The notes beneath the pieces are model-generated. The model saw only the letters and a list, made by a program, of their open reading frames with translations, ran no database searches and was not told where the DNA came from. The position numbers and the translations under genes were made by a program. Below are positions 6,990 through 26,512 of a stretch of DNA of 26,512 bases, one piece after another (the stretch's first letter is position 1; each line of letters opens with the position of its first letter). Source of the DNA: a virus (Duplodnaviria; Caudoviricetes); IMG/VR virus record IMGVR_UViG_3300046788_000343, positions 1-26,512 of that record; one strand, 5' to 3'.

Positions 6990-7433
6990 ATGGGGAGACA
7001 TCAAAAACACAATCTAGATGATCTAGCCGATGAAATAATCGAATGGTCTCAACACGCAACATCTTTGAATCTGATCGGCTTTTCCTCTCCAAAGCGTATG
7101 AGCGTCACAAAGTTGCCTGAATATGCCAACAAACATAAGAAATTTCGGGAGGCCTTGCAGCTAGCGAAGGAAAATATCTCTCAAAATAGATTTGATGCAG
7201 CATGTGCCGAAGTGATGCCTGAGAAATTCTATTCTCGTTGTGAAGGTCAATATGATCCGCTTTATCATAAATACGATAGAGAAGAGAGAAAATATGATGC
7301 TGATATCAAAGCTAAAGCAGAAGGCAACAACAGAAATCAAAAAATTATAGTTAAGGTGAAAAATGACCTTGCCCGTGGAGTTAACGTTCGAGCCAAGAAG
7401 TTATCAAATTCCAATAATAGAGGCTCTAAATAG
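6990..7433 (+). CDS. terS: Putative terminase small subunit
   Basis: Immediately upstream of and overlapping terL; size and MGR start are typical; assignment mainly positional. Confidence 0.65.
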   Translation: MGRHQKHNLDDLADEIIEWSQHATSLNLIGFSSPKRMSVTKLPEYANKHKKFREALQLAKENISQNRFDAACAEVMPEKFYSRCEGQYDPLYHKYDREERKYDADIKAKAEGNNRNQKIIVKVKNDLARGVNVRAKKLSNSNNRGSK

Positions 7434-9573
7434 TGGAACCAAACGCGCTGTCTGGGTGGTGCATAGGCGAGGAGGCAAGGACATTACTGCTTTTAACTGG
7501 TGCATTCTCCAGCTTTTGCTTAATAGTGGGTGGACTGCTTTTCATATTTTACCTACTTATAGTCAAGCTAAGAAAGTAATCTGGGATTCGTCTACGAATG
7601 ACGGCAAACGCATTCTTGATTACATTCCTCGAGAGGTAATCGAATCCAAGAACGGTCATGAGATGAAGATTCGATTCACAAATGGATCTCTTTATCAGCT
7701 TATCGGCTCGGATAACATTGATAGCCTAGTCGGCTCTAATCCTAAGATCATTATCTTCTCAGAATATGCTATTCAATCTCCTAACGCGTGGGCATATCTC
7801 AGCCCAATTCTAGAGGTTAATAAAGGCTATGCAATCTTTATCTCTACCCCGCGTGGTAAAAACCATTTCTATGATCTTGTGAATAATGCAAAAGCTAATC
7901 CTGACTGGTTTTGCGAGGTGCTATCAGTCAAAGATACTGGTGTATTGACCGAAGAAGACTTAAAAAGGATTCAAGCCGATAATGGATTCTCAGATGAACA
8001 TATGCATCAGGAGTATTACTGCAGTTTTAATCGCGGCGTGGAGGGTAGTTATTATGGGCGCATCATCGAAAAAGCGAGAGAAGAAAAAAGAATATGTAAT
8101 GTCCCATATGATACGCGCTGCCCGGTACACACTGCGTGGGACATTGGTTATGGGGACAGTACTAGTATCACCTTCTGGCAAGAGGTTGGGGGCGAATTGC
8201 GTATCATCGATTTTTATGAAGCACAAGGAGAAGGAATAGCGCATTATGCCAAAGTCATACAAAACAAGCCCTATGTATACGGCACACATTATATGCCGCA
8301 TGATGCGGGCTCGGGATCTATACAGACTGGAAGAACGTTGCAAGATGTTGCGTGGGAACAAGGCCTCAAGACAACGGTATTGGAAAGGGAAACAGATATT
8401 GCCATTGGCATTGAAGCCACTCGTTCACTATTAAGTATTGCATTCATCGATGAAACCAAATGCAAGCATCTCATCAAATGCTTAGAAAACTATCACAAAA
8501 AGTTTAATGAAAAGACCCAAGCGTATAGCGAAACGCCTATGCACGATTGGTGCTTTACTGGTGACACAAAAATATTGACGCATAACGGAACGTGTCGCAT
8601 AATGGATCTACCTAAAACAGGGAGTATTAAAACATTATGCGGATTCAAACCGTACACAAATCCACGAATAACGCGGAAAAATGCCCAACTTGTGGAGGTG
8701 AAGTTTGTCGACGGGACTATAGTGAAATGTACGCCGGAGCATTTATTTTTAACGGTAAACGGTTGGAAATCCGCAGAATCCCTAATGCCTTATACAGAGA
8801 TCCAATCATCCTTGATGAACTCACCCAATATTTCGATGGTGGATTATACCGAATATGGCCAAATGAAACATATTTCACTCGCGGAGGAAAGAAATTACAT
8901 CGAGATGTTTGGAAATCTGCGTTTGGTGAAATACCTGCAAAATGCCATATCCATCATAAAGACAGCAATCCAAGAAATAATTTACTTGAAAACCTTGAAT
9001 GTTTGCCCGCATCTGAACATTTATCAACAACTTGGAAAGATATCCCATCAAGAAAATTTGGTGATAAGGCTAGAGAAAAAGCAGCCGAATGGCATAGATC
9101 AGAAGAGGGTAGGTTGTGGCATAAAAGAAATGCAGAAAGAACAAAAAATTGGACTAAATGGAAAAGGGAGCCAAGGAATTGTTTGTTCTGTAATAAAGAA
9201 TTCATGGCAATGGTTCGTAAAAATGGTCACCAATCGAAATATTGTCACCCAAACTGTAAAGCAGCCTATTATAGAAAGCGTAAAGCATCTGGATTATAAG
9301 GAAGATGTTTGGTGTCTTACAGTTCCAGATCATGAGCATTTTAGTCTTTTCAATGGTGCTATAGTTCATAACTGTTCTCATGCTGCCGATTCTGTTCGCT
9401 ACATGGCGAATGCTCGCACGCAATTTGGGCGTGGGCCAGGATCGTTGACACAAGATAAGCTCAATCAGCTTAAAACCAACGCAGGCTATGGGCCCAAGCC
9501 AGGACCAAGATTAGGACCGCAGACGCCATTTATAGGCCCAAATAACAATAATCCATATTCAATGAGGAGATAG
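7363..9573 (+). CDS. terL: Terminase large subunit, intein-containing (462 aa after splicing)
   Basis: HRRGGKD Walker A, IIFSE Walker B, ISTPRGKNHFY, WDIGYGD; nuclease motif HDW|CSHAADSVRY is split by the intein. Confidence 0.95.
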   Translation: MTLPVELTFEPRSYQIPIIEALNSGTKRAVWVVHRRGGKDITAFNWCILQLLLNSGWTAFHILPTYSQAKKVIWDSSTNDGKRILDYIPREVIESKNGHEMKIRFTNGSLYQLIGSDNIDSLVGSNPKIIIFSEYAIQSPNAWAYLSPILEVNKGYAIFISTPRGKNHFYDLVNNAKANPDWFCEVLSVKDTGVLTEEDLKRIQADNGFSDEHMHQEYYCSFNRGVEGSYYGRIIEKAREEKRICNVPYDTRCPVHTAWDIGYGDSTSITFWQEVGGELRIIDFYEAQGEGIAHYAKVIQNKPYVYGTHYMPHDAGSGSIQTGRTLQDVAWEQGLKTTVLERETDIAIGIEATRSLLSIAFIDETKCKHLIKCLENYHKKFNEKTQAYSETPMHDWCFTGDTKILTHNGTCRIMDLPKTGSIKTLCGFKPYTNPRITRKNAQLVEVKFVDGTIVKCTPEHLFLTVNGWKSAESLMPYTEIQSSLMNSPNISMVDYTEYGQMKHISLAEERNYIEMFGNLRLVKYLQNAISIIKTAIQEIIYLKTLNVCPHLNIYQQLGKISHQENLVIRLEKKQPNGIDQKRVGCGIKEMQKEQKIGLNGKGSQGIVCSVIKNSWQWFVKMVTNRNIVTQTVKQPIIESVKHLDYKEDVWCLTVPDHEHFSLFNGAIVHNCSHAADSVRYMANARTQFGRGPGSLTQDKLNQLKTNAGYGPKPGPRLGPQTPFIGPNNNNPYSMRR
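8551..9372 (+). mobile_element. Intein (274 aa) in TerL
   Basis: Block A CFTGDTKI, block B KCTPEHLF, block F VWCLTVPDHEHF, block G IVHN followed by Cys+1. Confidence 0.93.
8637..9299 (+). CDS. HNH homing endonuclease in an alternative frame inside the intein
   Basis: LHRDVW...GEIPAKCHIHHKDSNPRNNLLENLECL...EH (HNH_3-like) plus C-terminal CxxC...CxxxC; true start uncertain. Confidence 0.85.
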   Translation: MRIQTVHKSTNNAEKCPTCGGEVCRRDYSEMYAGAFIFNGKRLEIRRIPNALYRDPIILDELTQYFDGGLYRIWPNETYFTRGGKKLHRDVWKSAFGEIPAKCHIHHKDSNPRNNLLENLECLPASEHLSTTWKDIPSRKFGDKAREKAAEWHRSEEGRLWHKRNAERTKNWTKWKREPRNCLFCNKEFMAMVRKNGHQSKYCHPNCKAAYYRKRKASGL

Positions 9574-9574
9574 T

Positions 9575-9823
9575 GTGGAAAAATGTTGCTGCTGTTCATT
9601 GGGAAACGCCAACGAACAGATTCTCCAATTGAGAAAAGAAATTTATGATCTTCTTCGCGGAGATTTGATAAATTTTTATCATCAAGAGAGGGAAGATGTG
9701 GACAAATCTATAATCTATTTTTATGCAATGCCGATCAGTTCCACTTATAACAAGCGAACTATAGACGTGCTGTTAGAGTGCTGCAGGGTAGCAAAAATGT
9801 ATAGAGATTCAATAAGGAGATAA
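9575..9823 (+). CDS. Hypothetical protein
   Basis: ORF track; GTG start with SD GAGGAG. Confidence 0.6.
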   Translation: MEKCCCCSLGNANEQILQLRKEIYDLLRGDLINFYHQEREDVDKSIIYFYAMPISSTYNKRTIDVLLECCRVAKMYRDSIRR

Positions 9824-15493: not shown

Positions 15494-15523
15494 TCTTCGT
15501 CTCCAAATCATGGAGACTAAAAA

Positions 15524-18431
15524 ATGAGCGGCCCTACAACAACAAGCATTCTGCCTCCGGCTGTCCAACAGCAGTTGAGCATGAAACTGCTTGCTCGTCC
15601 AATGCCAGATCTGATCCATACTACAATGGGTAAAGAATAGGGATTGCCCATATAAAATTTGGCTATTTGCTGGAAACTCCTAAAGCTTTCTGGTACACTG
15701 TATGCGACAGTCAATTACAGTGTAAAAATCCAGGAGATGAAACAATGGACAATCAGCAGGAAAGATTAGAATTAAGCCCGCAATGGTTTGCAGGATTTTT
15801 TGAAGCAGAAGGATGGTTAAGTTTGATGGATACAAAGAGAGTTGAAAAGGGTGAAAGAATCTCAAGATATGTTCCAACTTGTGGCATATGTAACACAGAT
15901 TTTCATATTTTATCTTTGATTCATGACTTATTCTATCAGAATGGAATCGAATATCAGTCATATGTAAGGAAACCAAGGAAAAAAGGATATAAATTAAGTT
16001 GGCAGATACATATTTCAGGGATGAAAAAATGTATAAAATTTATAGAATTTATTACCCCGCATATGATTGGAGAGAAAAAAATAAAAGCTCAAAAAATCTT
16101 GGAATTTTGCATAAATAGGAAAAATAAGATAAATGGATTTTGTGGAGTTTCGTATTCACAGTCCGATATCGAACTATTTTGTAATATTAATTCTAAAATC
16201 CTCAACGACTACACGCCAAACACCGAAAAGGTGATGATATAGTCTGAACATACGTGAGAACGTATGAGAGGGGAATAACAAGACCCTCCGCTATGTAGGT
16301 AGCTAATATAGGTAGCTACATAGTCATAAAGTAACAGCTAGTATCCGATCACAATGGATCAGCAAGCTGGCGATATTCTGAGACGACGACGTTATCAGAA
16401 TCTACAAACGGCTCCGGTACCACTTGGTAATGGAATCGTCGACCCACCAGCGCAGCAATTGACTGCTCTGGATATTGACGCACGCATTGATTGGTTACAA
16501 GCAGCATAAGCCATGCCAATCATCTTGAAGGGGTATGAATTTGATGGTACATACCTAATCCTTCAAGAGCAGGTAGACAAAATTGCCTGCTATAAACCAG
16601 CCCTAATTGACTTGGAACTCTGACCGCGTCAAGGCGAAGAAGACAAGGCGGAAGTGTTTGAAAATAAATGATAAACGAGATATAATCTTTCCAAAAAAGG
16701 GGTTATATGGAGTGGGTACAAGTTTTAACAATTATTGTTACGTTGTTAGGTGGAATTTTTTATATTCACTCAGATGTGCGAGATATTAAAAAAGATATGC
16801 AACAACACAATGCGAGAATGGATCAACTGAGTAACAGAATTGACAAATTGTACGAGATGTTTATCGATTTATTAAAATCAAAAAACACGCCGTGAGAGAC
16901 TTAAGCGGGTAGGAACCGAAAGGTTAAGCGAAAGTCCGATCTGTGCAGGAAACGCGCAGAGAGGGGAATAACAAGACCCTCCGCCAAGAATTAACATTTT
17001 TCGAGATGAACTCGATAAAATTAATTAACATAATCCTTGGTCAACAAGTAACAGTGTGAATGCTCATAAACGAAGATCCCGTGCTCAATTCAGCGGTATC
17101 TGTCCTTGGCCAATCTCTTCGGGAAACTGAAGATCAATTGGCACGTTCGATGATGGAAGGGGGTAAAATGTGTGCTCCCTATAAATCTTGGGTGATTGAC
17201 TTGGAACTCCTAGCTGCCTAGGCAGAAGGAAGACAAGGCGGAACTGTTACTCCACGTTGGTTTAAGATTTTCATTTGTCCATATAGAGATCGTCTAAGAT
17301 CCAGAGTTTTTTGGGATACAGGACACTCTCTCCGGACAAATGTTTCCCTAAACTGAATGGCAAGCAAACATTGTTGTTTTTTAACTATGAGGTAAGGAAG
17401 AACTTGTTTAAGGAATGATAAAGTATCATTGTTGTTGGAACGCCAAATATATTGTGGCTTCCAGTTAATGTGAATCTTTTTACTTGGAGCTTTGATTTCA
17501 CGATGATCACCAGGAAAATTATCACTTAACCATTCTAACAATTCTAAAGATGAATTGTAGATATCAACAGTAAGATAATGACGATTAAGACGCTTGGAAT
17601 AGTACATTCCGAAGCAGCCTTCGCCGTCTATCAGTCCGGCAACGTAAGCAAGTTTTTCAATCATAAGGCTCCAATGTTATATGTTACGTACATTATACAA
17701 TGATGATGCGTAGAATGCAACAACAGACCGTGAACGACTAAGTCCCGAGACGCCGAAAGGTGAAGCGATAGTCTGAACAGTATAGTAATATATTGAGAGT
17801 GATCCGAAGAGATTGCTCCGCCATAGAAATATGGTCAGTAGGTTGGGAACCGAAAGTAACAGAACTGGCACCTCCGATTAACTGTACTTCAGGTACAAAC
17901 GGGGACAACCCAACCAACATTAGTCCATTGGATTGCTCAAAAGCCGTGCGCCTCTTGCGTACAGCCAATGCTCAATTCATCATGGATATTATTGAAGGTG
18001 AAAATAAATTTGGTACAGCTCCAGTCCGTACAGCATTCTTTGGTCTAGGCCACACGAATCTGTCGGCAGATCTTGACCAAATGCTTGGATTTATTAACGT
18101 AGCAAACTACGCTAATCAGTCCAATTTACTTCAACCCGAATGGGGTACCGTAAGGAACTTACGTTTCTTGCTCTCTTCCGTCGGGTCAATTACTCCAAAT
18201 GCTTCTGCCAATGGTGCAGACGTTTACAACGTTTTCATTCCAGGGCAAGAATCTTATGACATGGTTGATTTGGACGGATACTCCGCTCAATTCTGCTATG
18301 CTCCGCCTGAAATTGCATCCCCACGCTTGAGACTCTACCAGACTGCTGGTTGGAAAATGGCTCAAGTATTCAACATCACCAACACCTCTTGGATTGTCAA
18401 CCTACGTTGCACTCTCCAAGTAGCACTATAG
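15524..18431 (+). CDS. Major capsid protein (N4-gp56-like), spliced: join(15524..15631,16342..16495,16544..16574,17059..17164,17868..18431), 320 aa
   Basis: Joined exons give an uninterrupted 963-nt ORF: MSGPTTTSILPPAVQQ..HTTMG|YPITMDQQAGDILRRRRY..IDARIDW|YGTYLILQEQV|MLINEDPVLN..RETEDQLAR..GG|APPINC..FGTAPV..EWGTVRNLRF..TAGWK. Confidence 0.9.
15632..16341 (+). ncRNA. Group I intron 1 in the capsid gene (710 nt)
   Basis: P1 AUGGGU/GCCCAU with U.G at the splice site; P4 UUGCUG/CAGCAG; P3 UUUGGC/GCCAAA; P7 GACUA(16207)/UAGUC(16240); P8 with GAAA loop; terminal G. Confidence 0.93.
15745..16242 (+). CDS. LAGLIDADG homing endonuclease (single motif) in intron 1
   Basis: WFAGFFEAEGW motif; start ATG 15745 with SD AGGAG (track starts at 15667). 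Confidence 0.9.
   Translation: MDNQQERLELSPQWFAGFFEAEGWLSLMDTKRVEKGERISRYVPTCGICNTDFHILSLIHDLFYQNGIEYQSYVRKPRKKGYKLSWQIHISGMKKCIKFIEFITPHMIGEKKIKAQKILEFCINRKNKINGFCGVSYSQSDIELFCNINSKILNDYTPNTEKVMI
16496..16543 (+). ncRNA. 48-nt core-less group I-like mini-intron
   Basis: Contains an in-frame TAA; removal restores W-Y-G-T-Y; P1 UGAUUGGU/GCCAAUCA with U.G; P10 GCCAU/AUGGU; ends in G. Confidence 0.8.
16658..16686 (+). promoter_or_regulatory. Sigma70-type promoter inside intron 3
   Basis: TTGAAA-17 bp-TATAAT, 20 nt upstream of ATG 16707. Confidence 0.75.
16707..16895 (+). CDS. Intron-encoded small TM plus coiled-coil protein (not an endonuclease)
   Basis: MEWVQVLTIIVTLLGGIFYIHSD hydrophobic helix followed by heptads; SD AAGGGG; own promoter. 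Confidence 0.8.
   Translation: MEWVQVLTIIVTLLGGIFYIHSDVRDIKKDMQQHNARMDQLSNRIDKLYEMFIDLLKSKNTP
17218..17664 (-). CDS. LAGLIDADG homing endonuclease, antisense within intron 4
   Basis: LAYVAGLIDGEGCF motif; LPYLIVKKQQ; SD GGAG. Confidence 0.92.
   Translation of the reverse strand: MIEKLAYVAGLIDGEGCFGMYYSKRLNRHYLTVDIYNSSLELLEWLSDNFPGDHREIKAPSKKIHINWKPQYIWRSNNNDTLSFLKQVLPYLIVKKQQCLLAIQFRETFVRRECPVSQKTLDLRRSLYGQMKILNQRGVTVPPCLPSA
17692..17720 (-). promoter_or_regulatory. Sigma70-type promoter for the antisense endonuclease
   Basis: Minus-strand TTGCAT-17 bp-TATAAT. Confidence 0.75.
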
Positions 18432-20570: not shown

Positions 20571-20618
20571 TTTCTAGACTTATAAACACCCGTCTTATAC
20601 TATATTTAAGAGGTGTTT

Positions 20619-21152
20619 ATGGGAATAAAAGATAGCGGACTTAGTCTTAAAGAGAGACTTCTTAAAAAAAAGAAAATAAAAAAATCATGTTGGGAATGGC
20701 AAGGATTTATAATGCCAAATGGATATGGAAGAATGTCATTCAAAGGAAAAGATCAGTATGTTCATAGATTAAGTTTTGCGGCATTTATAGGAGAGATTCC
20801 TAAAGGAAAAATAATTTGTCATTCATGTGATAATCGAAAATGTATAAATCCAAAGCATTTATGGATAGGAACATTTAAAGAAAATACACAGGATGCTTGC
20901 ACGAAAGGAAAAATGAAAGGGTTTTCAAGAAAAGTTCATTCTGAAGAAAGTAAAAATAAAATGAGAAAACCTCATAATATAAATAGAAAAGGTGAAAAAC
21001 ACCCAAATGCGATTTTGGATGAAAATAAGGTAAAAGAAATTAGAAATTTATTTTCGCAAGGATTGACCAGGAAAGAAATAAGTGAGATATTTAAAATTAC
21101 GAAAAATTGTGTTAAGGATGTAGTTTTAAGGCGATCTTGGAAACACATATAA
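20619..21152 (+). CDS. Free-standing HNH homing endonuclease
   Basis: CWEWQG...GYG...HRLSF...ICHSCDNRKCINPKHL...NTQD; NUMOD3-like HSEESKNKM; C-terminal HTH; AT-rich; start GTG 20613 or ATG 20619. Confidence 0.9.
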   Translation: MGIKDSGLSLKERLLKKKKIKKSCWEWQGFIMPNGYGRMSFKGKDQYVHRLSFAAFIGEIPKGKIICHSCDNRKCINPKHLWIGTFKENTQDACTKGKMKGFSRKVHSEESKNKMRKPHNINRKGEKHPNAILDENKVKEIRNLFSQGLTRKEISEIFKITKNCVKDVVLRRSWKHI

Positions 21153-24041: not shown

Positions 24042-26512
24042 CAACACAAAATTTTATGATCGGCCCGATAAAAGACGGTTTGCGTAAAGATACGAGACCA
24101 TATGCTATTCCCGAAGATGCATTTGATACGATGACGAACGCTTATCAATTTAGAGGTCGAGTTATCAAGAGATCTGCATATACTCTTTTAGGAAACTTAG
24201 CTAATGGTACGCCATGCATGGGTTTAAGAACACAGGAGGGTTTCAATGTCGACGTTCAAACACTTATCGCTTTTGATCTTACACAGGCTTATAAATATAA
24301 TGGTGCAGCTTTTATACCTCTTTCATCAGTAATGCCAGTCACATGGAGCGGTACAGATTACCAATTCTTTTTTTCTACAAATTATGCGGGAGCGTTCTGG
24401 GCTACAAATTCTAAGCCGGGATTAAACGGATGGAACGTAAGTTTGTTCGCTGGTTCCGCTGGAGTTGGAAATGCGGCAACCGTACAAGTAACTTCTGCGG
24501 GCAATAACGTGAAGGTTGGGGACTATGTTTATTTTATCAATCTTTCCGCCGCTGTCGCTGCAAATGCCGCTGTTTTAGCTATCGTTACAGTTGCAGGAAA
24601 TCCATTTACAGTACAAGCAGTTAATCAGCCCTCGACATCGACATTTACCTGGACGAACGGTCCAACACTTACTGGCATGGTTTTAGATTCCATGCAAACA
24701 GTCGCCGGGAAAGACGGAATACGTTATTATGGAGCGTTGACAAATGGTACAGGCTGGGCTAATTATAATCCTCCTATCGATCCTAATAATGCTTTGGCAG
24801 GAGCCTTATTGATTTTTCCTTATCGTGGATATCTTGTATTTTTGAATACAACAGAGGGAAACGATGCTGGAGTATTCAATTATGGAAATAGAGCAAGATG
24901 GACGCAAATCGGAACCCCCTATTACTCTTTCCCTGTTCCTTCTACTCCAAGCCCGCAAGGAGTCGATGTAAAAACCGCCAGGGACGATTTATTTGGTCGA
25001 GGCGGGGCTAATGATGCCCCTACCAACGAAGTTATCGTAGCGGCCAGTTTTATTCGAGATATCCTAGTTGTCTATTTCGAGCGTAGCACATGGCGACTTA
25101 GATTCGTCAATAACGCCCAGAATCCTTTCGTTTGGGAAAGAGTGAATGTTGAGTTGGGCAGTGATTGCACCTTCAGCACAATTCCTTTTGATAAAGGAGT
25201 GATGGCGATAGGAAATAGAGGTATTGTCATCAGCGACGGTAACGATACCAAAAGATTTGATGAAAAAATCCCTGACACGATTTTTGAGATTAGGCAGAAG
25301 AATAACGGATTTAATCGCGTTCAAGGAATAAGAACGTTCGAAACTAAATTGAATTATTGGACCTATCCCAGTGATGATAATCCTAATGGTGTTTATCCCG
25401 ACAAAGTTTTGGTGTTCAATTATGACACACAGAATTGGAGCTTTTTCGATGATTGCTTCACCTGTTTTGGATATTATTACCCAATATTAAGCGGTGTTGG
25501 ATACACATGGGCCGATTTGACAAGATCATGGTCCTCTTATACAGATGTTACCTGGGACGGTGGAATCTCGCAATCTGGTGAAGAACTTATCATTGCCGGA
25601 AATCAGCAAGGATTTGTTTTTATCTTAGAACAAGGGCAAGGGCAAAACGCTCCTTCTCTCAACATTTCGGCAATTACAACGGCAAATCCAGGTGTTTTTA
25701 CAAGTACAAATAATAACCTCCCAGATGGAACATGGATATCATTAACCGGAGTGACTGGGACGACTTCAGCCGATGGGGTATCGCTTAACGGCAGAAATTT
25801 TAAACTTTCCAATCCCACGCTAAATGCGAATACTTTCACTCTGAATGAATTCACATCTATCGATGGGGGAGCAGCCGTTGGAACTTCTTATCAATATACT
25901 GACAATTATCAAAATATCCTTCCCGGCTCAGTGCAGATTAACGTTGGCTCTTTAGTTTTTAAAGACACAAATCTAGACGGAATCCTTTATGAAGCATCTA
26001 GCCTTGGCACAGGAACGATTAACTACTCTACTGGATTAATCAATTTGACTTTCTCTCCGGCTATTTTATCTACTGAAGTTTATATCAGAGCGGTTTCATT
26101 AGATCCTACTCAAGGATTATCTCCGGTGGCTACGACAACAGCATATACAGGAGGAGGGCAAATTATAAAAATCAGCGGAATCGACATTCAAACAAAATTG
26201 TTTAACTTCTTCAATGATGATCAGCGCGCACGATTAAGTAAGATAGATTTTTATGTCGACAGTACATCTAACGGGCAATTTACGTGCAATGTATTTGCAG
26301 ACAGCAGCAATTCTCCTGTAAATACTCCCCTTCTAGATAATCCTCAAAGCAATGTGGTGCTCACTTCAATCAATCCTTATCAGGTTGGTCAAGGAGATGA
26401 AACAATTTATAGATTGTATTGTGATGCAATAGCTCAGACACTCCAATTGCAATTGACTTATACCGATCAGCAAATGGCTATCAATGCATATAATTCAGCA
26501 GATATTCAGTTA
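24038..26512 (+). CDS. Large virion protein (tail tubular B / stabilization-protein-like), truncated by the window end
   Basis: Absent from the track, as expected for an ORF with no stop in the window. Starts MTTQNFMIGPIKDGLRKD...PEDAF..M.NAYQFRGRVIKR and the same frame reads open at 26512 (825 codons; both ends and spot segments translated); beta-rich. Confidence 0.75.
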   Translation, partial: MTTQNFMIGPIKDGLRKDTRPYAIPEDAFDTMTNAYQFRGRVIKRSAYTLLGNLANGTPCMGLRTQEGFNVDVQTLIAFDLTQAYKYNGAAFIPLSSVMPVTWSGTDYQFFFSTNYAGAFWATNSKPGLNGWNVSLFAGSAGVGNAATVQVTSAGNNVKVGDYVYFINLSAAVAANAAVLAIVTVAGNPFTVQAVNQPSTSTFTWTNGPTLTGMVLDSMQTVAGKDGIRYYGALTNGTGWANYNPPIDPNNALAGALLIFPYRGYLVFLNTTEGNDAGVFNYGNRARWTQIGTPYYSFPVPSTPSPQGVDVKTARDDLFGRGGANDAPTNEVIVAASFIRDILVVYFERSTWRLRFVNNAQNPFVWERVNVELGSDCTFSTIPFDKGVMAIGNRGIVISDGNDTKRFDEKIPDTIFEIRQKNNGFNRVQGIRTFETKLNYWTYPSDDNPNGVYPDKVLVFNYDTQNWSFFDDCFTCFGYYYPILSGVGYTWADLTRSWSSYTDVTWDGGISQSGEELIIAGNQQGFVFILEQGQGQNAPSLNISAITTANPGVFTSTNNNLPDGTWISLTGVTGTTSADGVSLNGRNFKLSNPTLNANTFTLNEFTSIDGGAAVGTSYQYTDNYQNILPGSVQINVGSLVFKDTNLDGILYEASSLGTGTINYSTGLINLTFSPAILSTEVYIRAVSLDPTQGLSPVATTTAYTGGGQIIKISGIDIQTKLFNFFNDDQRARLSKIDFYVDSTSNGQFTCNVFADSSNSPVNTPLLDNPQSNVVLTSINPYQVGQGDETIYRLYCDAIAQTLQLQLTYTDQQMAINAYNSADIQL

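Follow-up and report, generated by a model that had tools for sequence, protein, structure and literature searches.

How can an endonuclease be made from inside an intein when its gene lies in a different reading frame from the intein itself? This question is raised by the gene for the terminase large subunit (terL) in a stretch of tailed-phage DNA of 26,512 nucleotides (IMG/VR record IMGVR_UViG_3300046788_000343, positions 1 to 26,512), the whole of which we call the window. This terL is interrupted by an intein, which holds an intact HNH endonuclease gene in its -1 frame. From the sequence comparisons described below, we consider it likely that the nuclease is produced from a short transcript of its own, starting at a predicted promoter within the codons of the splicing domain. 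The parts of the locus are the following.

7363-9573, + strand: terL precursor (terminase large subunit), 736 aa; an open reading frame (ORF) whose N-extein matches the PHROG terminase large subunit (E 5e-25).
8551-9372, + strand: intein, 274 aa, in the terL frame at the site HDW|CSHAAD; its translation is stop-free and of the form C...HN.
8551-8817, + strand: N-terminal splicing domain, intein aa 1-89, which also holds the predicted promoter and hairpin, the HNH start and the HNH extension; predicted local distance difference test score (pLDDT) 89-98 per ten-residue block; synonymous sites frozen.
9271-9372, + strand: C-terminal splicing domain, intein aa 241-274, single-coding past 9299; pLDDT 96-98; synonymous identity 0.35 over the last 22 codons (0.34 expected).
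8637-9299, + strand: HNH endonuclease gene, 220 aa, in the -1 frame relative to terL, the frame being open from 8631; HNH_3, with 211 homologues.
8889-9020, + strand: HNH catalytic core, aa 85-128; HNH_3 E 1.8e-14, with conserved H and N residues.
9180-9257, + strand: C-terminal four-Cys zinc module (C182, C185, C203, C207), invariant in 118 of 118 aligned proteins.

Class 1 inteins are marked by an N-terminal Cys or Ser, a TxxH motif in block B, a C-terminal His-Asn and a Cys, Ser or Thr at position +1. Here C1, T61, H64 and N274 are invariant in all 76 aligned inteins, H273 is found in at least 90% of them, and the +1 residue is Cys. In the terL frame, Pfam recognized Intein_splicing (E 9e-13) and no endonuclease family across the intein. 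The AlphaFold model reached a pLDDT of 96-98 at residues 1-80 and 241-274 and fell below 50 for most of residues 92-234. A Foldseek search with it returned 39 matches at E <= 0.001, with the gp41-1 intein at the top (E 1e-5), corresponding to a Hint fold. The flanking translation confirmed the insertion at HDW|CSHAAD, a motif that we take to have a catalytic role in the terminase, and the Terminase_6C match in an intein-less relative stops at residue 385, just before the insertion site. TerL is an essential protein, and together with the motifs this argues that the intein splices. Used as a query, the intein-frame protein recovered only one locus, as would be expected if its middle part is unconstrained.

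The nuclease is clear in the other frame, where PHROG also labels the ORF as HNH and Pfam gave no Endonuclease VII family. H106, N119 and H128 are present in 118 of the 118 aligned HNH proteins and H107 in 117; we take these four residues to be catalytic. Two further cysteines, C103 and C122, were considered as partners of the CxxC in the N-terminal extension; they are at least 90% conserved in the close clade, yet occur in relatives without that extension as well. The gene stops 73 nt short of the intein end, directly before the DVWCL block. Thus the preliminary description of this DNA, made from the letters alone, was right about the intact splicing blocks, the lack of an in-frame endonuclease family, the insertion site, and an HNH gene with C-terminal cysteines ending just ahead of block F. 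The HNH model (mean pLDDT 87.9) had I-HmuI as its top structure match over residues 50-136 (Z 6.5, root-mean-square deviation 2.8, 79 aligned residues, 19% identity), and I-HmuI was also first in Foldseek (E 0.12). I-HmuI (PDB 1u3e) is an intron-encoded enzyme. The four-Cys module weakly resembles YacG (Z 4.0) and has no match in the I-HmuI structure, and a search of PDB sequences with the HNH profile gave just weak, unrelated matches. A second, free-standing HNH_3 gene lies at 20613-21152 of the window.

Relatives were collected in two ways. The HNH core alone, used as a query, recovered 80 viral loci, 5 of which had no host ORF and were dropped. A metagenome scan that included one pattern from the HNH extension gave 140 relatives, of which the best 80 were used; 4 of these, having no in-register intein start, were dropped. 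Removal of near-duplicates reduced the close viral set from 35 to 25 and the metagenome set from 76 to 51. Unless stated otherwise, expected values refer to the 25 close viral inteins.

Upstream of the HNH start, two elements stand out within the splicing-domain codons.

8575-8603, + strand: predicted promoter of sigma70 type, TTGACG-17-CATAAT, spanning intein codons 9-18 and written with conserved rare synonymous codons.
8576-8597, no strand: imperfect inverted repeat that covers the -35 box and the spacer, a possible operator; synonymous positions kept in 45-48 of 51 inteins.

No other stretch of the intein is as frozen as codons 9-18 (same codon at a rate of 0.76, compared to 0.29 expected), despite stops in the -1 frame. 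The TTG of the -35 box is present in 23 of 25 inteins (3.4 expected) and the ATA of the -10 box in 21 of 25 (5.5 expected), and TTGAC is kept in 47 of the 51 further inteins. A promoter scan found a match at the identical base in 53 of the 76 close inteins, compared to 10 of 277 extein control windows. The more distant inteins point in the same direction: 7 of 21 carry a match of at least 10/12 no more than 100 nt upstream of their own HNH start, as against 3 of 251 controls. In addition, G stands opposite the first T of the -35 box in 60 of 76 members, and since C would pair better, RNA pairing fails to explain this T. The promoter is the sole sigma70-type match in the 2.4 kb from 7300 to 9700.

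The inverted repeat is possibly the operator of some protein. As an RNA hairpin it was rejected: G-U and A-C combinations occurred 22 and 21 times, and covariation was not significant (89 of 500 shuffles). Comparison of the palindrome and promoter with the homing site revealed no likeness in the 25 inteins (best 14-mer identity 9.7, compared to 9.1 in control windows).

The second part of the predicted control lies immediately downstream.

8620-8624, + strand: Shine-Dalgarno (SD)-like GGGAG, 12 nt 5' of the ATG, conserved among relatives.
8595-8642, + strand: predicted RNA hairpin over the HNH SD and AUG on the long terL mRNA (-14.3 kcal/mol, z -3.08), whose 5' arm overlaps the -10 box and the predicted start site.

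A match of at least 4 nt to AAGGAGG precedes the HNH start in 64 of 76 relatives, whereas two candidate starts further on have such a match in 9 and 16 of 76. Among the 65 inteins with an HNH start at this place, intein nt 55-62 pair with the SD at nt 70-78 to form a family core helix, in which 92.3% of cells are paired and 15 two-sided changes occur, a result reached by 0 of 500 shuffles; slid controls gave 32-64%. Pair 55/78 covaries (Fisher p 0.004), and five control sites were not significant. In 22 sequences the SD was the costliest 7-mer of the region to open (8.7 kcal/mol, compared to 2.4-6.2 kcal/mol), and in 17 sequences cutting the RNA at the predicted start lowered the opening cost by 4.4 kcal/mol, compared to 0.5 kcal/mol or less at seven control positions. 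The stem-building Pro21 is present in 62 of 65 members with the HNH start and in 2 of 11 without it. No Rfam family matched the window at the gathering threshold.

We propose that these signals would work as follows. The terL mRNA would be translated into the precursor, from which the intein splices out and removes the nonsense middle, while on this long mRNA the hairpin would hide the ribosome-binding site of the HNH gene. Host sigma70 RNA polymerase would also initiate near 8610; as this start falls within the 5' arm of the hairpin, the ribosome-binding site would be freer on the short transcript and the 220-aa HNH protein could be made. The I-HmuI-like nuclease would then nick or cut an intein-less terL near HDW-x-SH-x-x-D in a co-resident phage, and repair would copy intein, promoter and nuclease as a unit.

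Several points weigh against this reading. The promoter match in the window proves nothing alone, since shuffles give 6.5 matches and a single one is not above expectation; the scan fails in 23 of the 76 close inteins, and 13 of the 21 distant ones have no match. The use of sigma70 is an assumption about the host. Support for a hairpin masking the HNH start is good but not conclusive, because only 2 of 7 helix pairs change two-sidedly and the sequences are related; moreover, the shuffle test is not a probability. In the window itself, the family core SD helix is weak (-2.8 kcal/mol), so that masking depends on the window's own arm, and the opening cost varies with the assumed start (7.9 at 8604, 4.9 at 8612). 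Finally, the likeness of the HNH protein to I-HmuI is middling, as the scores given above indicate.

The rival that survives best is internal initiation on the ordinary terL mRNA, where ribosomes translating TerL would occasionally open the hairpin, and the promoter-like boxes would be weak or otherwise used. The conservation of SD and ATG independently of the promoter, the members that fail the promoter scan, and the separate, unexplained constraint on the conserved spacer agree with it. However, it leaves the rare synonymous codons in both boxes at 17-nt spacing and the pairing-independent T of the -35 box without a reason, as well as the near-consensus promoters that distant inteins have at unrelated positions, and we regard it as unlikely. 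Of the two routes to separate expression suggested in the preliminary description, internal initiation thus appears incomplete, with a promoter of the gene's own and a masking hairpin being indicated; the other, frameshifting, fares worse, as shown below.

The proposed mobility was examined in the distribution of the intein. Among 42 TerL relatives obtained with the N-extein as a query, the site was empty in 37, a distant HNH intein was located four residues downstream in 4, and a short intein was present in 1. Of 51 close inteins, 18, 8, 6 and 17 were located 0, 1, 3 and 4 residues past HDW, respectively, and 2 elsewhere. Intein pairs with 80-88% DNA identity reside in exteins that are only 34-44% identical. 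In a contig from another sequencing run (X3), 6 listed differences within the intein are followed by 12 differences in the first 30 nt of the C-extein (hand count), and the same run contains an intein-less terL allele. Intein-less alleles with HDW|CSH are present, for example, in L082, L110 and L114. These patterns suggest that the HNH protein is a candidate homing endonuclease for intein-less alleles.

The close TerL relatives with a different intein four residues downstream are L087-L090 and L104; in L088 this intein holds a distant -1 HNH and shows two promoter-like matches, and in L104 it is short and gave no HNH match.

The HNH gene could instead have been domesticated, that is, retained because it serves the phage, for instance in DNA packaging or in the exclusion of competing phages, rather than mainly for homing. 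Every member of the HNH family that we examined lies in or beside terminase genes, and its strong conservation and dedicated control signals would suit such a role. Yet the site lacks the intein in most close TerL relatives, similar inteins sit in very different exteins, and the insertion point varies, which speaks against domestication. Exclusion of competitors is compatible with homing, so there is no either-or, and we consider domestication improbable.

The preliminary description did not note that the HNH gene begins within the N-terminal splicing domain, in codons shared with the predicted promoter, the SD and ATG, the hairpin and the HNH extension. The HNH ATG at 8637 corresponds to intein codon 29/30, and the first ~55 HNH codons overlie the splicing domain, outside the central linker.

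8637-8801, + strand: N-terminal extension of HNH, aa 1-55, overprinting the splicing domain and containing an invariant C16-x-x-C19 at 8682-8693, with T at the third positions of the Cys codons.

In the HNH frame, this region contains 0 stops compared to 68 expected, and third-position T is found at both Cys codons in 25 of 25 inteins each (11.1 and 4.9 expected). The same codon is used at a rate of 0.61 over intein codons 29-60 (0.35 expected) and 0.70 over codons 61-81 (0.32 expected). Single-coding parts are saturated, codons 1-8 (0.42, compared to 0.38 expected) as well as the last 22. The 25 viral inteins were retrieved with the core only, so the frozen extension is not a search bias. The ATG is at codon 29/30 in 21 of these 25, and the remaining 4 have an ATG five codons further on. 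In the 51 further inteins, it is present in 43 and both Cys residues in 49, the CxxC of the other two being displaced by one codon; taken together, 65 of the 76 close inteins have ATG or GTG at the HNH start.

Distant relatives have no extension, and their HNH begins later, in ten of them at the codon for Trp in the GWK motif of the intein and in the rest at nt 228-296. In the tree, the 25 close sequences form a single clade (100/99). Overprinting is the origin that we infer for the 55-residue extension. In its model, residues 31-47 form a confident β-hairpin, while residues 1-30 are less confident. The extension has no match in the I-HmuI structure; a word-based search of shorter proteins was empty and the top Atlas score was 0.75, neither of which demonstrates novelty. 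Two alternative starts further on, HNH M31 and the GW codon of the intein, were rejected as the main start: start-type codons are frequent there and SD support is weak. They may be secondary or ancestral starts.

The position of the start also bears on whether ribosomes make a programmed -1 frameshift within the N-domain of the intein, which would yield a TerL-HNH fusion. The HNH gene does lie in the -1 frame, which is open over ~55 codons of the splicing domain, as such an event would need. However, an XXXYYYZ heptamer is absent from the window and occurs in only 13 of 76 relatives, at scattered positions, and the open stretch starts at a conserved SD and ATG, immediately upstream of which 64 of 76 have a stop. 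We therefore think a frameshift highly improbable.

The dual-frame layout is shared widely. Among the 80 viral loci, HNH lies in the -1 frame of the intein in 69, in the +1 frame in 5 (L039, L040, L041, L069 and L071) and in frame in 1 (L077). All 34 close viral loci have the -1 layout, as do all 80 metagenome loci, where neither frame has a stop across the match; this makes 114 of 114 close loci. Over the HNH core of the 25 close inteins, the HNH frame has a ratio of nonsynonymous to synonymous polymorphism (pN/pS) of 0.33, compared to 1.10 for the TerL frame, in which 76 stops would be expected over HNH and 0 occur. These values indicate that the HNH frame is selected for protein sequence and the TerL frame for the absence of stops. 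The preliminary description had noted about 660 nt free of stops in two frames and had looked to selection per frame, to stops in homologues and to compensating indels for a decision, and each of these came out on its side.

For the indels, low-depth contigs of two other runs were used instead of raw reads. The contig from run X2 (8698-9468) showed 0 gaps over HNH and 0 differences, and that from run X3 (8560-9407) 0 gaps and 15 differences, whereas run X9 gave no coverage of the intein; the four listed HNH-core substitutions of X3 are all silent for HNH and all alter the TerL frame (hand reading of frames). Taken together, the comparisons establish that the dual-frame intein and HNH arrangement in terL is real, widespread and selected. 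An assembly error, or a decayed in-frame HNH intein with compensating indels, could appeal to the one in-frame relative and the five +1 members, but this reading is already refuted by the homologues, given the constant -1 layout of the close loci, the gap-free other assemblies and the invariant catalytic residues.

No cultured phage of the close clade was found: blastn gave no match and tblastn gave only distant matches below 60%. A close-clade element with frame breaks in both terL and HNH, which may stem from decay or from an assembly error, is located on a 305-kb contig of an Acidobacteriaceae metagenome-assembled genome (L127:2415-3217).

Outside the close clade, the same HNH family occurs in several forms. 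It is free-standing beside the terminase genes of phages PAE1, BP10, EauM-23 and Shemara. In Lactobacillus phage CL2 (L222:506-2590), terL ends in an intein N-half, which is followed by a free HNH gene of the family and an intein C-end motif. The cultured phage TJE1 has a distant member nested at -1, and at L077:1007-3196, a single locus, a TerL-like ORF contains an intein with an in-frame HNH of the same family. The tree places this in-frame member as the sister of a -1 member (99/91) and joins two +1 members to a -1 member (98/97). It had been proposed at the outset that a free-standing HNH gene invaded the intein. The free-standing relatives beside terL in four cultured phages, and the one between the split-intein halves of a fifth, fit an invasion; the order of events is a matter of inference, because the tree is midpoint-rooted.

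A broader interpretation, which we offer tentatively, is that the splicing domain is triply coded: it would splice, carry a complete host-polymerase promoter with a riboregulatory hairpin, and encode a zinc-binding nuclease N-domain born by overprinting. The sigma70 promoter would free the nuclease from the late programme, so that a prophage or an early-infection genome could cut the terminase gene of incoming intein-less phages, and one HNH family would span free-standing, split-intein, -1, +1 and in-frame stages.

Next to terL are a 147-aa ORF (likely terS) on one side and a P22-like portal gene (Pfam P22_portal, E 8e-58) on the other; the 26.5-kb record also encodes RecT-like, O-like and RusA-like genes. 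Elsewhere in the window, the major capsid gene (15521-18431) is apparently in four coding pieces (15521-15640, 16342-16509, 17060-17221 and 17772-18431). Its region contains weak group I intron matches below the Rfam cut-off (E 1e-4, 0.016 and 0.54) and LAGLIDADG-like ORFs in sense (15667-16242) and antisense (17218-17664) orientation, both below the Pfam cut-off. From 24043 to 26512, one + frame is stop-free to the window end, forming a long unannotated ORF.

In canonical bifunctional inteins, the endonuclease is in frame with the splicing domain, unlike the terL intein. This layout has precedents, a point on which the preliminary description was overstated: a literature check found out-of-frame endonucleases in inteins in preprints of 2025 and 2026. 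Gosselin et al. 2025 (bioRxiv 10.1101/2025.01.02.630785) describe frame-3 endonuclease VII-like homing endonucleases within non-canonical inteins. The same-strand endonuclease ORF in frame 3, the open host frame, a middle part that lacks structure when read in the intein frame, terminase as one of the host genes and the invasion model are all shared with the present case. By contrast, the terL nuclease is HNH_3/I-HmuI-like, whereas the HNH inteins of that preprint are in frame; its secondary ORFs are usually located outside the splicing domain, whereas the terL HNH starts at codon 29/30 and runs for 55 codons over the Hint half. The word promoter occurs 0 times in its main text. In Phillips, DeSimone and Gogarten (bioRxiv 10.64898/2026.09.14.751524), a cyanobacterial dnaX intein holds a LAGLIDADG endonuclease in a +2 ORF. 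It resembles the terL intein in the out-of-frame endonuclease, the frame-dependent ratio of nonsynonymous to synonymous rates (dN/dS), a putative SD and a patchy distribution, and differs in the LAGLIDADG type, the cellular gene and the location of the ORF over the disordered region between splicing domains; the word promoter occurs 0 times in that text as well.

In the ShiLan domain, according to Arsenault et al. 2025 (PMC11855218), an out-of-frame HNH with zinc fingers lies in frame 3 of a stop-free host frame; it sits in a methylase without a splicing domain, whereas the terL case has a complete intein. The route of translation is left open there (section 4.3), where no ribosome-binding site was found and leaderless initiation was proposed. 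To this stated gap in the expression of nested out-of-frame endonucleases, the present HNH family offers a base-level answer that can be tested with reporters.

In fractured genes, as outlined by Dassa et al. 2009 (PMC2677866), an endonuclease gene is flanked by the intein halves and has hairpins as well as promoter elements upstream of it. Such a layout is seen with the present HNH family in phage CL2; the terL intein differs in being contiguous, with the endonuclease nested in another frame. The closest parallel in logic is found in T4 I-TevI/II/III, segB and Aeh1 mobE (PMC2988022), where a hairpin masks the ribosome-binding site on long transcripts and the site becomes free on a transcript that begins at an internal promoter close by. 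The terL HNH resembles I-TevI in its predicted masking hairpin; its predicted promoter is conserved and so placed that the transcript may lack the 5' arm. However, the T4 signals lie in non-coding intron or intergenic DNA and use a late promoter, whereas those of the terL intein lie in coding intein codons and are of sigma70 type; the terL promoter also has no operator resembling the homing site, a trait of the I-TevI type.

In the main texts of the literature covered, mostly without subscription journals, intein codons were nowhere described as carrying a promoter, a masking hairpin or an overprinted extension. The dual-frame layout is thus already known, and the predicted expression unit and the extension over the splicing domain are the new part. 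If correct, they indicate that the T4 intron device, a masked start with a promoter of its own, can be recreated within the coding sequence of an intein, and that the extension provides an instance of overprinting that can be dated, on a fold that is conserved and catalytic and with relatives known from both sides of the event. It would also follow that many of the phage inteins now annotated as decayed are probably mobile.

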